Below, piece by piece: positions 51,072 to 56,499 of a stretch of DNA of 64,000 nucleotides (its first letter is position 1; every line of letters starts with the position of its first letter). The notes under the pieces are model-generated. The model made no database searches. It was not told where the DNA came from and saw only the letters and a program-made list of their open reading frames with translations. The DNA is taken from IMG/VR virus record IMGVR_UViG_3300037067_016777, positions 1 through 64,000 of that record. One strand, written 5' to 3'. Position numbers and translations under genes: made by a program. The stretch is from a virus. Its lineage: Duplodnaviria > Caudoviricetes.

Positions 51072-51103
51072 GGAAGATTGGAAGATTGGAAGATTGGAAG
51101 ATG
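51072..51103. repeat. GGAAGATT tandem repeat x4
   Basis: Three perfect copies plus GGAAGATG. Confidence 0.9.
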
Positions 51104-51279
51104 GGGAAGTGGGGCACTTATTTCACGCCCCGGACAAATACTCAATATCCAGGAGGACCCAATATCGAATTTCCGCGAGAATAAATTTCTAAATATGCGA
51201 AGGCTACCTGTCTCACCATATATACATATCAGGAGATTTAGAATGTGCCAGAATCACAAATATACTTCTGAGGTGTCCG

Positions 51280-52167
51280 ATGAAACTAGCATTACTGTGT
51301 GAAGATTTCGATAGCCAGTTCAGAAACCAGCAGTTATCATGGGGAGAAAGAAATCGTGAATTTATCAAGATAAGAACAGAGGAGACGAAAAAAGAATTAT
51401 TGCGATTGGCAGTAAATGGTGCCAGACGACCAAAACCAACATCGTCAGATGCAAAAGAGCGACGGTTAGCAAATTCACTGGGCAGTTATACCGGCAAGTC
51501 GCGTTCCTATGATAGAGAATTCGATGATAAAATTCGTGCTTTAGCACCGCAATGGTTCCTCCATGTAAATGAACATAAAGAGGAATTGTTGACGTTGGCT
51601 AAAAGTGGTGCCGCTAGGCCGAGCTTTGCTAAAAATAGATCGCGGAAAGAACGAATACTGGCAGGAAGATTGAATAATTATATACAACCAACTAATAAAT
51701 CATATGACGCCGAATTCGTCGAGAAGTTGAGAAAGATAGCTCCAGGATGGCTAGTCGATAAGGTAGCGGAAAACAGAAAGAGGATATTGGAAATCGCTAA
51801 AAGTGGAGGAAAACGTCCCTGGATAACATCTACTGACCTGGAAGAGAAACGGATAGCATTAGCACTCAATAACTATCTCAAAAAGAGCCATCCCTCTTAC
51901 GATAGCAGATTTGTTGAAGAACTACAAAAAATTAGACCAGATTGGTTTCCACAATCAGTTGTGGCCGAGAATAAAAGAAGACTGCTAGCAATAGCTAAAA
52001 GCAGCGGAGCGCGTCCAAAGTTCACAGACGACAAGCAACTAGCACGAGCTATTATGACTTATACTGATAGAAATGGGCCATCCTATGATGAGGCGTTCGA
52101 TGCAGAAATTCGCAGATTAAGGCCAGATTGGTTCGGACGTGGATATCATCCTAGACGAGGTGTCTGA
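51280..52167 (+). CDS. Tandem-repeat protein 1 (4 modules of ~65 aa)
   Basis: Repeat K..LL..A.SG..RP...E.RLA..L..Y...YD.EF...IR..P.WF. Confidence 0.85.
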   Translation: MKLALLCEDFDSQFRNQQLSWGERNREFIKIRTEETKKELLRLAVNGARRPKPTSSDAKERRLANSLGSYTGKSRSYDREFDDKIRALAPQWFLHVNEHKEELLTLAKSGAARPSFAKNRSRKERILAGRLNNYIQPTNKSYDAEFVEKLRKIAPGWLVDKVAENRKRILEIAKSGGKRPWITSTDLEEKRIALALNNYLKKSHPSYDSRFVEELQKIRPDWFPQSVVAENKRRLLAIAKSSGARPKFTDDKQLARAIMTYTDRNGPSYDEAFDAEIRRLRPDWFGRGYHPRRGV

Positions 52168-53084
52168 TGAAACTCAGTTTGCTAATAGAAGATTTCGATA
52201 GCGAATTTCGCGATGATTATACACCATACGCTGATAGAAATAAAGAACATGATAGATTAAGGATAGCAGAGACGAAACGAGAAATAATAAAATTAGCGGC
52301 AAGCGGTGCAAAACGACCAAACCCAAAATCAAAAGACCCAAAAGAAAGACGACTAGCGAATTTTATAAACTCCCATGCAAGCCCCGCATCTCACGTTTAT
52401 GACATGAAATTTCGTGGCGCTTTGCGTGAAATAGCCCCGCATTGGTTTAGCTGGGCAGTAGAGTTAAAAGATGAATTGCTAAATCTTGCTAAAAGCGGCG
52501 CAAAACGACCGAACATCAGATCCAAGGATCCGAAGGAAAGAAAGCTCGGGCAGGCGTTTGATAGCTATTATCGCCGAACGTCCAAAGCATACGATCCAGA
52601 ATTCATTAAGAAAATCAAAGCGATAGCTCCAGAATGGCTAATATATAAGACGCCAAGAGTAGAAGAGAACATACGGAAGCTGTTAGAGATAGCCAAGAGC
52701 GGAGGGCAGCGGCCTAGTTGGATGTCGAGCGATCCTGAAGTTAGGCGATTAGCAAACGCATTAACCAGCTATATGAGAGTGGATTCTACAACCTATAGAA
52801 AAGACTTTGCCAATCAATTGCGTAAATTGCGGCCAGAATGGTTTATAGATATACTGGTAGCGAAGCATAAAAAACGGATACTAGAAATAGCTAAGGGCGG
52901 AGAGAAGCGACCACGATATAATGCTGGTCCTGAGGAGAGGCGATTAGCAGTAGCACTTGCTCTCTATATTGATAAATCTGGTAACTCGTATGATAAGGAA
53001 TTTGATGAGATGCTTCGCAAAATGAGGCCAGATTGGTTTATTAGGAGACATAGAGGATACGGCGACAAGAAACAACCGCTCTAA
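52167..53084 (+). CDS. Tandem-repeat protein 2 (4 modules)
   Basis: Same repeat; TGATG coupling. Confidence 0.85.
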   Translation: MKLSLLIEDFDSEFRDDYTPYADRNKEHDRLRIAETKREIIKLAASGAKRPNPKSKDPKERRLANFINSHASPASHVYDMKFRGALREIAPHWFSWAVELKDELLNLAKSGAKRPNIRSKDPKERKLGQAFDSYYRRTSKAYDPEFIKKIKAIAPEWLIYKTPRVEENIRKLLEIAKSGGQRPSWMSSDPEVRRLANALTSYMRVDSTTYRKDFANQLRKLRPEWFIDILVAKHKKRILEIAKGGEKRPRYNAGPEERRLAVALALYIDKSGNSYDKEFDEMLRKMRPDWFIRRHRGYGDKKQPL

Positions 53085-53094
53085 GAGGTGTCTG

Positions 53095-54234
53095 ATGAAA
53101 CTCAGTTTGCTAATAGAAGATTTCGATAGCGAATTTCGCAGGGAATATGTGCCATTCGGGCAGCGGAACCTTAAATATATTAGGTTAAGAATGGAGGAAA
53201 CTAAGGAGAAATTATTAGAGCTAGCAAGAAGCGGAGTGAAACGCCCAAAATATAAATCGCTTGATCCAGAAGAAAGGCGACTAGCTCGTGCATTAAATGA
53301 TTTTACAAGCCTAGACGTTGCACGGCGTGACCCAGAATTCTGTGCTAAGATATATGCCCTCGCTCCAGGATGGTTTGATCCAGACAGGAAAGCTAGGGTA
53401 ATAGCTACAAAAAAGAAGCTATTAGAGATAGCGAGAAGCGGGGGAGAGCGACCAAGATACAACTCTACCGATCCAGAAGAAAGACGACTAGCGATCTCAT
53501 TAACCCGTTATGCCGTTCATCCGGATACAAAAGATGACGAATTTGCAAAAGAGATATTCGTAGCAAGGCCAGAATGGGCACCGGGGTATCGCACAATCCT
53601 AATGGCAAGAACAAAAGAGAAATTGCTGAAGATGGCTGCGAGTGGAGCCGCACGCCCGGACCGATATTCAACAAACCGGGAAGAGGCTAAATTAGGAATA
53701 GCCCTAAATAATTATACTACTAAGAGCCAGCGACAATATGATGCAGATTTCTACAATAAACTCGTTAAAATCAACCCTGATTGGGTTGATAGATTGGATC
53801 AGATATATAAAAGAGTGGCAGAGACGAAGAAGAAACTGCTGGAAATGGCAAGGAATAACGAAAGACGACCAAACATCAGATCTAATAATCCAGAAGAAAG
53901 ACGACTAGGAATAGCTCTCAGCGTCTATGTCAACAAATTAACAAGATCTTATGATGCAATATTTACAAGAGAAATCCGTGCACTTAGACCAGATTGGTTT
54001 GATTCAGACAGAAAAGCAATAGTGGCAGAGACGAAGAAGAAACTGCTGGAAATGGCAAGGAATAACGAAAGACGACCTCAATACAAGTCAAGCGATCTAG
54101 AAGAGAAGCGATTGTCTAGCGCATTAATGACTTACACTTCAACCGGTAGTGGTTCTTACGACGAAGCATTTACAAGAGAAATCCGTGCACTTAGACCAGA
54201 TTGGTTTGATTCAGACAGAAGAGGAGCAATATGA
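53095..54234 (+). CDS. Tandem-repeat protein 3 (5 modules)
   Basis: Same repeat; 55 bp around the start identical to protein 2. Confidence 0.85.
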   Translation: MKLSLLIEDFDSEFRREYVPFGQRNLKYIRLRMEETKEKLLELARSGVKRPKYKSLDPEERRLARALNDFTSLDVARRDPEFCAKIYALAPGWFDPDRKARVIATKKKLLEIARSGGERPRYNSTDPEERRLAISLTRYAVHPDTKDDEFAKEIFVARPEWAPGYRTILMARTKEKLLKMAASGAARPDRYSTNREEAKLGIALNNYTTKSQRQYDADFYNKLVKINPDWVDRLDQIYKRVAETKKKLLEMARNNERRPNIRSNNPEERRLGIALSVYVNKLTRSYDAIFTREIRALRPDWFDSDRKAIVAETKKKLLEMARNNERRPQYKSSDLEEKRLSSALMTYTSTGSGSYDEAFTREIRALRPDWFDSDRRGAI

Positions 54235-54249
54235 TATTAGTATAACGTT

Positions 54250-56499
54250 TCACGATACTCCTAGGGCTATATCTGGTGGGAGCATCTGTATCCGATGAAG
54301 TACAGTTTCTACATCAAGATTCAACTTATGCCCCCATTCCGCTGCCGTGAGCTTCTCATTATTATAAATGAATTTCGTGACTTGATGGCCTACCATTATA
54401 GCCTTGTGGAATTTAGCATAATTTGCCCCTAATTTTCTTGCCCACTCAGCCATTAATAATGTCTGACCATTATATTCATATCTTGTCCTGCCCACGCCTC
54501 TACATCTCAATTTCACCACAGCCGTGAATCTGCTTGCCCACTCCCTTAGCGTCAACGACTCACCATTATATGTGAATAACTTTGTGTCATATGCTTTTAA
54601 TTTCCTCTGTTTATAGCATTCGACAGCTAATGCCTTTTCTACTGGCTGTCGAATCAAACGACGCTGCATTGCTTTTACTGAGCACTGTCTTCTTTTTGCC
54701 CATTCCTCTATTGTAAGAGATTCGCCATTATAGGTGAATAGATGCGTTGGAGTCAGATTATGCAGTCGCTCCAACAGAACCTCTATTGGTATTTTGCTAG
54801 AATAAACAGCAAGCGTGTCTGGCGATATATCAAATGTTTTTGCCCATTTATGCAATGACATCGTTCGGCCGAGATATGTATATTTCTTCACATTTGATGA
54901 TTGATTCGTCTTTTGTTCTGCGTCGGGACTTACCTGATTTGCCTGGATCTGATCTGTTTTGATATGCTCCGCTTGTGCTTTCTCGACCTCAGCGAAACAT
55001 GTGAGGCGTTTAACCGCCTTTGATTCTATCTGACGTATCCGTTCTCTCGTAACCTTGTATTTTACAGCTATTTCTTGAAGACTTAATCCTTGTGCACGTA
55101 ATTGCAGTACCTTGATGGCTCTCGCTGACAATTTGTCGTTCTGAGATTTATGTGATTTGTTATACCATTCCACGACTTCATCTAGTGATATGCCGAATAT
55201 GTTTTCAGGCTTCGAGACGTTTCGACAACAAGCATATTCCTTCTCCGCTTCTCGTCTCTCATATAGCATAATGAGATGCGACATCTTATGTCTTCCAACT
55301 ATCGACAAATAATTTAATATGTGCTGGTTCGACTCGAATTTATCAATATTGTTCTTCATTAAGATTGTGCAAGCCGCTGTCCAAGCAAGATCTTCAATAT
55401 CTTCGTCAGTACAAGGTTTTCGACGCACTTGATTGCAGTAAAACGTCAATACAGACACAATCATATCGGCAATCGGTTTGCCATCACCCGTTAAGAAATA
55501 ATTCTTAAAAGCTGACAACATATCAAATCTAGCGTACTTCGCTGGCAATTTTACGAAGTGCTGCGATTTTCGCATCGGATTTATGATAATATATGGATAA
55601 TCCGGGGCGTGGCTTGCTTTACGAGTTTTATGCCTAGTCCTGACATTTCTTCTTTTGTGTTTTCTCTCTGCTTTTCCGAGCCTATAACGCTCTACTGCTT
55701 CTGCTAATGAATGGGAAGCAACGTAGCCTTGAAACGTCATCTTACTCACATTTAACTCTGTCGCCCATTCTCTACATGTCAACGATTTACCGTCGTATTC
55801 GTATCTCGGTACAACATATTTCACATTTATTGCCTCTTCAATCGGCAATCGCCGTAACCGCCTCGACATCTGTGTCATAGATAGGCCCAGCTTCTGAGCC
55901 CATTCAGCGGTTGTTAATGATTCGTCGCCAAATGTATACCTCCTAGTCCTGTTCTCTTGTACAGCCTTCTGAAATTTTTCGTTATCAAGTGCTATTTCAT
56001 GCGAATAGCTATTCAATCTGTTTCGCAATTGCGAAACAGAGATTCCTAACTCGGTCGCCCACTCTTTGGTTGTTTGTGATTTTCCATTGCACTTATACCG
56101 CCTCGCCCTATTTGCCTCAATAACCGCTTTGAATCTTTCATTATCCAACGCCACATCGACTGCATAACGCCTCAACCTGTGTCTTAGTTGGTCATATGAA
56201 ATGCCCAATTCAATTGCCCACTCATCCAACGTTTTCCCACCATGCGTGAACTCTTTTGATATTACACCAGCGACTTTCCTGTACTCCGTGTTATCTAATG
56301 CCACCTCCGGGATATAGTCCCTTAACCTGCGCAATAGCCGTCGTGGTGTAATCCCTAACCTAGATGCCCACTGATGCAATGCCAGCGTTTCGCCGTCGAG
56401 CGTCAGTATCTTCTCATATTCCGGTTTTGGATAGATATCGACGTTATATTCATCACTATCAAGGGCAATAGTAAAACTCACACAGTTAGCGTTGTCCAT
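54250..56499 (-). CDS. Sigma70-like factor flanked by ten HTH-type repeats
   Basis: Region 4 LS.R...VL.LR..GLSLQEIA..Y.VTRERIRQIE.KA..RL; possible region 2 (EDIEDL...KFE...YL); repeats Y.YNGESLT..EWA..LG. Confidence 0.8.
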   Translation of the reverse strand: MDNANCVSFTIALDSDEYNVDIYPKPEYEKILTLDGETLALHQWASRLGITPRRLLRRLRDYIPEVALDNTEYRKVAGVISKEFTHGGKTLDEWAIELGISYDQLRHRLRRYAVDVALDNERFKAVIEANRARRYKCNGKSQTTKEWATELGISVSQLRNRLNSYSHEIALDNEKFQKAVQENRTRRYTFGDESLTTAEWAQKLGLSMTQMSRRLRRLPIEEAINVKYVVPRYEYDGKSLTCREWATELNVSKMTFQGYVASHSLAEAVERYRLGKAERKHKRRNVRTRHKTRKASHAPDYPYIIINPMRKSQHFVKLPAKYARFDMLSAFKNYFLTGDGKPIADMIVSVLTFYCNQVRRKPCTDEDIEDLAWTAACTILMKNNIDKFESNQHILNYLSIVGRHKMSHLIMLYERREAEKEYACCRNVSKPENIFGISLDEVVEWYNKSHKSQNDKLSARAIKVLQLRAQGLSLQEIAVKYKVTRERIRQIESKAVKRLTCFAEVEKAQAEHIKTDQIQANQVSPDAEQKTNQSSNVKKYTYLGRTMSLHKWAKTFDISPDTLAVYSSKIPIEVLLERLHNLTPTHLFTYNGESLTIEEWAKRRQCSVKAMQRRLIRQPVEKALAVECYKQRKLKAYDTKLFTYNGESLTLREWASRFTAVVKLRCRGVGRTRYEYNGQTLLMAEWARKLGANYAKFHKAIMVGHQVTKFIYNNEKLTAAEWGHKLNLDVETVLHRIQMLPPDIALGVS

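Follow-up and report, generated by a model that had tools for sequence, protein, structure and literature searches.

Three tandem phage genes encode stand-alone arrays of a three-helix module resembling the helicase-associated domain

Three tandem genes carry 13 copies of one module

We analyzed a 64-kb stretch of viral DNA (the window), the initial part of the linear, 269,105-bp IMG/VR virus record IMGVR_UViG_3300037067_016777 (CheckV completeness, 74%), and describe three tandem genes in it, here called A, B, and C, whose products are built almost entirely from copies of a module of about 65 amino acids (aa). The genes, their Shine-Dalgarno sequences, and their modules lie as follows.

51270-51275, plus strand: Shine-Dalgarno sequence GAGGTG of gene A
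51280-52167, plus strand: gene A, 295 aa, isoelectric point (pI) 10.1, 36-aa leader, four modules
51373-51555, plus strand: module A1
51562-51759, plus strand: module A2
51760-51951, plus strand: module A3
51958-52137, plus strand: module A4
52157-52162, plus strand: Shine-Dalgarno sequence GAGGTG of gene B
52167-53084, plus strand: gene B, 305 aa, pI 10.0, four modules
52260-52451, plus strand: module B1
52452-52646, plus strand: module B2
52656-52853, plus strand: module B3
52854-53042, plus strand: module B4
53085-53090, plus strand: Shine-Dalgarno sequence GAGGTG of gene C
53095-54234, plus strand: gene C, 379 aa, pI 9.8, five modules
53188-53388, plus strand: module C1
53395-53580, plus strand: module C2
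53599-53790, plus strand: module C3
53812-54009, plus strand: module C4
54019-54216, plus strand: module C5

Each Shine-Dalgarno sequence stands 4 nt 5' of its ATG, the stop codon of A and the start codon of B overlap by one base, and 10 nt separate B from C; the three genes are a translationally coupled operon of paralogues. A preliminary description, made from the letters of the window, had reported three tandem genes with 13 modules on a fixed scaffold, and both ways of delimiting the modules—cutting by regular expression at the anchor K..LL..A..G..RP and aligning with MAFFT—agree on this count (4+4+5, each module 63 to 71 aa long). Across the 13-module alignment, A13, R19, P20, F51, P60, and W62 are invariant and L10, L32, and D48 are kept in at least 90% of the modules, at an inter-module identity of 34 to 70%. 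Because the paralogues match one another at E values of 1e-18 to 1e-44 in a search of the genome, and because 1,333 representatives of the module occur elsewhere (see below), the repeats are, as judged by these searches, far beyond chance. The 269-kb record holds no further module copy beyond A, B, and C. The proteins are also as basic as had been described, with an excess of K+R over D+E of 21 to 24 per protein, and a search against Pfam found no catalytic domain in any of them.

The module defines a large family that usually accompanies helicases

A, B, and C belong to no family in Pfam, NCBIfam, PHROGs, or PADLOC; matches to DUF2683 are weak (E of about 1e-3) and lie under the cut-off. A word-seeded search returned 47 relatives, and the module profile, run over 1.84 billion representatives, returned 1,333 at E≤1e-3, 554 of them at E≤1e-30. 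By this profile the module is a large uncatalogued family of 1,333 representative clusters, and the arrays of its members hold between 1 and 13 copies. The longest array that we saw is that of the metagenome protein P0049, which has 13 modules in 832 aa and no other domain.

Helicases are the regular company of these modules. Eight of the 10 long relatives carry ResIII, DEAD, or Helicase_C domains N-terminal to the modules, P0044 is a helicase with two modules, and the stand-alone arrays P0016 and P0020 (on 213-kb and 618-kb contigs) lie directly against the 3' end of a gene for a DEAD/ResIII helicase. A related-locus search with a single protein gave one helicase-fusion locus, and a metagenome scan gave helicase fusions only. 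In about 15 stand-alone relatives, a canonical half-domain of the helicase-associated (HA) type (PF03457, E of 1e-8 to 1e-5) comes first and array modules follow. Tandem copies attached to superfamily 2 (SF2) helicases are thus a property of the module family but not of A, B, and C, which stand alone. In other large phage-like contigs, tandem overlapping array paralogues (231 aa plus 428 aa) also occur; in the set of loci concerned (L024:2198-4176, L010:5755-9218, and L011:6071-9197), arrays otherwise lie directly behind a gene for a DEAD/ResIII helicase of 642 to 749 aa.

The predicted fold resembles that of the HA domain, and the sequence does not match it

AlphaFold2 predicts three helices per module, with a predicted local distance difference test score (pLDDT) of 90.7 and a predicted template modeling score of 0.67 for the gene C protein and a pLDDT of 92.9 for a single module. 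Among 48,161 chains of the PDB, the HA nuclear magnetic resonance structure 2KTA ranks 5th against the single module (Z, 3.8; root mean square deviation, 3.1; 61 of 66 residues aligned) and 2nd against the whole protein (Z, 4.3), although such scores (Z<5) fall within the range of chance matches among three-helix bundles. The top shape match in the ESM Atlas is a cluster in which 86% of members are PF03457 (TM-score, 0.62; 63 residues aligned), and the nearest language-model clusters are all HA. Foldseek returned nothing from the PDB at E≤0.001, for either the whole protein or the single module, and module profiles matched PDB sequences only at chance level (the C-terminal tail of Noc, an aspartate receptor, and an ETS helix; E of 0.3 to 0.9). 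No match in the PDB structure searches spans more than one module; the array arrangement is therefore without a solved counterpart.

At the level of sequence, the likeness disappears. PF03457 is unmatched at E≤1 by A, B, and C, by 149 single modules, and in a six-frame search of the genome; compared by hhalign with sets of 6 and 16 canonical HA half-domains—templates that lack helix 1—the 149 modules gave probabilities below 1%; and a search for full canonical HA sequences from the N terminus of P0014 returned the query alone. Since the comparison of profiles with these half-domains gave no match, we call the module HA-like and not a demonstrated member of PF03457. Of the resemblance to HA-type three-helix repeats proposed in the preliminary description, the predicted fold and the helicase company support one half indirectly, and sequence membership fails.

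The comparison with the HA domain (PF03457; 2KTA, Bacteroides vulgatus BVU_0683, residues 627 to 691) can be drawn more closely. Both are units of about 65 aa with three helices that occur in tandem copies, both are found C-terminally on SF2 (ResIII/DEAD) helicases as well as in stand-alone arrays, canonical HA half-domains share polypeptides with the array module, and the HA domain is the nearest fold among both solved and predicted structures. The differences are that the array module matches neither the Pfam model nor the half-domain profile, that helix 2 has L-G-x-A-L-x-x-Y with variable x where HA has the signature G-W...QR, and that helix 3 carries YD..F...IR.LRPDWF. Mills 2013 (cited in PMC12191111), which describes the structure of HA, reports DNA binding in its title. 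Tandem HA domains are known from the Streptomyces telomere protein TtrA and from TniQ target selectors (10.1101/2024.11.13.623437), and TtrA and the clade-2 telomeric TniQ share with our arrays the arrangement of several HA-type modules in a row, with a proposed role in DNA recognition for a motor or transposase (10.1101/2024.11.13.623437). Those proteins are bacterial, contain canonical PF03457 domains, and are fused to an enzyme or selector, whereas the phage arrays consist of a divergent module and stand alone.

One face of helix 2 is variable and depleted of acids

The residues that the preliminary description had listed for three variable positions of a helix (x1, x2, and x3; module positions 34, 37, and 38) are correct to the letter in all 13 modules, and these positions fall within a single helix, helix 2, of the AlphaFold2 models. 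For entropy and face composition, about 220 modules were cut from 44 relatives with a hidden Markov model. Positions 34, 37, and 38 have entropies of 3.4 to 3.8 bits, the highest within helices, and the helix-2 face as a whole has 2.9 to 3.8 bits, compared to 2.1 to 3.1 bits at the exposed positions of helices 1 and 3. L32, L36, and Y39 are conserved and point to the buried side of helix 2, and positions 30, 31, 34, 37, 38, and 41 form the opposite stripe. This stripe contains 5% D+E, 27% K+R, and 42% N/Q/S/T/H, compared to 24 to 25% D+E on the exposed faces of helices 1 and 3. The variability and acid depletion of the helix-2 face fit a putative recognition surface that faces nucleic acid.

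Variability is not confined to this helix, and loop positions 22, 23, 27, and 45 are as variable as positions 34, 37, and 38. Nor does the face change faster than its surroundings: between gene C and its 86%-identical orthologue P0004, changes fall at 4 of 27 sites of the helix-2 face and at 14 of 65 other high-entropy positions (a small sample), at 8 of 26 linker sites, and at 3 of 88 core sites. As far as these alignments go, the helix-2 face is module-specific and not fast-evolving. The helix that had been called hypervariable is so by per-column entropy within helices, but the loops equal it and the orthologue comparison gives no faster change.

A letter code is not supported, and the flanks of C4 and C5 were probably homogenized

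The preliminary description had further suggested a code-like, shufflable family of binders. Among the relatives, x2x3 takes 109 distinct pairs in 231 modules and x1x2x3 takes 203 distinct triples in 224, and mutual information among positions 34, 37, 38, and 41 shows no excess over shuffles (z at most 1.5). These numbers of pairs and triples, together with the missing covariation, speak against a limited vocabulary of code words, and a discrete, letter-by-letter code of the type used by transcription activator-like effectors (TALEs) is, on this alignment, not supported. Comparison with Myb/SANT, TALE, and zinc-finger arrays therefore stays an analogy: all are tandem small helical modules with a polar, variable helix face, but the phage modules share with them neither homology, nor a restricted residue code, nor a solved multi-module counterpart. 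TALE repeats in particular have scaffolds that hardly differ and draw their specificity residues from a small repertoire, and the array modules, whose scaffolds are only 34 to 70% identical, show neither feature.

Among the 78 module pairs compared, C4/C5 is the only mosaic. The two modules agree at 97% of nucleotides in helix 1 and at 100% in helix 3, and at 44%, which equals the background, in the center; the identical tracts are placed as follows.

53814-53870, plus strand: helix-1 tract of C4, 57 bp identical to 54021-54077 (helix 1 of C5)
53961-54013, plus strand: helix-3 tract of C4, 53 bp identical to 54168-54220 (helix 3 of C5)

The stretch enclosed by these tracts (90 bp) is 44% identical between C4 and C5. 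In P0004, the C4 and C5 centers each match their counterparts in gene C at 24 of 30 residues, whereas its C4 flanks are unlike its C5 flanks. Because P0004 keeps the centers yet differs in the flanks, the pattern points to homogenization of the C4/C5 flanks in the present lineage, apparently by gene conversion that spared the centers. The spared centers are consistent with selection for distinct centers, in what is a single event; this one recombination event is also all that stands of the proposal that modules are shufflable.

The genome encodes a reverse transcriptase (125057-125692, minus strand; RVT_1, E of 4e-24; 485-aa frame), and we considered the arrays as targets of a diversity-generating retroelement. 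This was rejected, as neither the C4/C5 differences nor those of a 147-nt repeat pair at 126578/127051 are adenine specific and the arrays have no DNA similarity to the reverse transcriptase region or the rest of the genome. The 147-nt pair is 70.7% identical with mismatches over all four bases, and its members are parts of paralogous genes.

The arrays lie in a deep-branching T4-type genome

Among the genes of the same record are those for a gp21-type prohead protease (PF03420, E of 2e-22; genome position 94651-95103) and for a major capsid protein of the gp23 type. The capsid protein has its best identity, 36%, to that of an uncultured 595-kb phage and is about 28% identical to those of cultured phages of the T4 superfamily; from these identities and the gp23- and gp21-type genes, we classify the phage as a deep-branching jumbo phage of this superfamily. 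The array locus found no DNA match by blastn among 50,697 phage records, and the neighboring open reading frames (ORFs) at 56.6 to 63 kb and 50.0 to 50.6 kb have no Pfam match. Near the three array genes, the T4 late promoter TATAAATA was not found, and a scan for sigma-70 promoters gave no excess over shuffles. The non-coding stretch of about 550 nt that lies 5' of gene A contains three copies of GGAAGATT and one of GGAAGATG in tandem (window positions 51072-51103).

Two further repeat proteins are encoded nearby or elsewhere in the record. Convergent with gene C and 15 nt from it, a minus-strand gene (window positions 54250-56499) encodes a 749-aa protein in which Sigma70 region 4 (E of 2e-13) stands between about 10 repeats of some 40 aa resembling helix-turn-helix (HTH) units; this protein matches PHROG 3377 ("HNH endonuclease") at E of 1e-33. 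In Bacteroidota, sigma region 4 occurs fused to HA repeats. Beside the prohead protease gene, a 599-aa ORF (genome position 95204-97003, minus strand) has about 12 W-x-x-PE-[YF]-[RK]-x-K repeats followed by a C-terminal globular part; these repeats are a family distinct from the array module.

A shared N-terminal peptide resembles a prohead-protease site

The N termini of A, B, and C have the form MKL(S/A)LL(I/C)E-DFDS(E/Q)F in common, beginning with an octapeptide.

51280-51303, plus strand: N-terminal octapeptide of A, MKLALLCE
52167-52190, plus strand: N-terminal octapeptide of B, MKLSLLIE
53095-53118, plus strand: N-terminal octapeptide of C, MKLSLLIE

Over the 74 nt that comprise the ribosome-binding site and leader, B and C are 89% identical in DNA, compared to about 55% elsewhere. 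The record of T4 gp23 notes cleavage by gp21, and we take the cut in T4 to follow Glu65. BLASTP aligns the segment ...FLTE(65)/A of T4 gp23 with SLILE/D of the capsid protein of this phage, and B and C start with MKLSLLIE/D. In general, gp21-type proteases cut after Glu, and the internal proteins of T4 are basic and have a 10-residue N-terminal targeting sequence (PMC9026906). Counted over the ORFs of the whole genome, there are seven instances of the motif L[SN]x[LIVA][LIV]E, six of them within the first 25 residues compared to 0.8 expected, and these are spread over three unrelated gene families. Besides the arrays, four ORFs (plus strand; starts at 126124, 126551, 127027, and 129301) have L-S-x-[IV]-[LI]-E among residues 1 to 17. 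Resembling SLILE/D, this pattern may be a genome-wide propeptide or capsid-targeting signal. The octapeptide of the arrays may likewise be a propeptide or capsid-targeting signal that ends in a prohead-protease-type site, or else a degenerate half-module, in which KLSxxL would correspond to the start of helix 2 and FDSEF to YDxEF.

What the arrays may do

We infer that A, B, and C probably bind DNA, and at a probability of roughly 55% we read the operon as a set of stand-alone HA-like arrays that would do so through the helix-2 face, with a graded preference rather than a letter code. The module would hold both the place and the fold of the HA domain, with the exposed face of helix 2 (positions 30, 31, 34, 37, 38, and 41) of each module laid against double-stranded DNA and the conserved basic residues K6, K/R14, R19, R/K56, and R59 holding the phosphate backbone. 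An array of four or five such units would have a long footprint of high avidity, and arrays would differ from one another in the sequence or shape that they prefer, in the graded manner of Myb or HTH repeats, not one letter per module. In the relatives, the array would tether or aim an SF2 helicase; here it would have been freed from the motor and triplicated, and the common N-terminal peptide may also send the proteins into the capsid. Several results weigh against this reading. Besides the chance-level structural scores and the failure of PF03457 and of hhalign to recognize the module, no helicase gene adjoins A, B, and C, the helicases that accompany the relatives have no counterpart in the 269-kb record (which is 74% complete), and the acid depletion of the helix-2 face would also fit binding of RNA or of an acidic protein.

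Packaging into the capsid would be an addition to DNA binding and not an alternative to it: the octapeptide would be removed by the prohead protease and the arrays packed and injected with the genome, like IPI, IPII, and IPIII of T4. These are likewise small to medium, very basic phage proteins from paralogous genes with leaders conserved at the DNA level; their short conserved N-terminal peptide ends in a Glu cleavage-type site, to which the octapeptide is a candidate counterpart, and the T4-type prohead protease that such processing would call for is encoded here, together with the gp23-type capsid protein. The candidate site in B and C, its likeness to the inferred maturation site of the capsid protein, the enrichment of the motif at N termini, and the conserved B/C leader DNA lend moderate support to capsid targeting as a predicted function. 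However, the motif has few residues, and A, B, and C, being paralogues, amount to a single observation; a degenerate half-module is another reading of the leader, homologues in other phages start with different N termini, the remaining ORFs with the motif have no annotation, and the array genes are distant from the head genes. T4 internal proteins, moreover, are not repeat arrays and have no similarity to A, B, and C in sequence or fold. We consider packaging possible but less likely than not.

The same evidence can be arranged in other ways, which we think fit less well. Given that fused or adjacent helicase-array arrangements dominate the relatives, and that the genome has SF2 (ResIII) genes at 28.4, 150.8, 186.6, and 246.6 kb, the arrays could be detached subunits that act only in trans, as DNA-targeting partners of a phage SF2 helicase, like the split gene pairs; yet none of these four genes adjoins the arrays, the relatives' helicases have no homologue in the 269-kb, 74%-complete record, and three paralogues for one motor would be left unaccounted for, so that we regard this as improbable. 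Still more doubtful is a helical scaffold that binds proteins and not nucleic acid, perhaps to inhibit a host factor or to serve as a decoy for it, with a variable face that tracks its protein target. The best, weak Foldseek matches of the whole model are indeed armadillo-type peptide binders (E of 0.02 to 0.1), but at TM-scores of only 0.1 to 0.17, the net charge of +21 to +24 and the acid-depleted face fit a polyanion, and the family is tied to helicases throughout. That x1, x2, and x3 let every module recognize a short DNA sub-site, and that modules can be shuffled to reprogram the target, we hold to be very unlikely. The variable residues do follow the spacing i, i+3, and i+4 along a single helix face and are rich in N, S, R, Q, and T, the module centers are kept between orthologues and survived the homogenization of their flanks, and arrays vary widely in module number; against this stand the unrestricted repertoire, the lack of covariation, the divergent scaffolds, the equally variable loops, the absence of surplus change at the helix-2 face, and the lack of a multi-module solenoid match in the PDB. 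The boldest combination, in which programmable DNA readers have their units swapped by flank recombination and three of them are packed into the capsid to act at injection, strikes us as far-fetched.

Arrays of HA-type repeats are widespread, in helicases, sigma factors, transposon target selectors, and phages, and what is new here is a large uncatalogued module family of 1,333 representative clusters within this already known architecture. The locus offers a clean handle on such proteins: its three arrays are small and have no motor, their module is distinct in sequence, the models are confident, and there is a candidate contact face. It also holds a natural experiment, in that gene conversion appears to have erased the differences between two scaffolds and not those between their centers. 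If the N-terminal peptide is a capsid-targeting signal, A, B, and C would be the first case of internal proteins made up of repeats that bind DNA.

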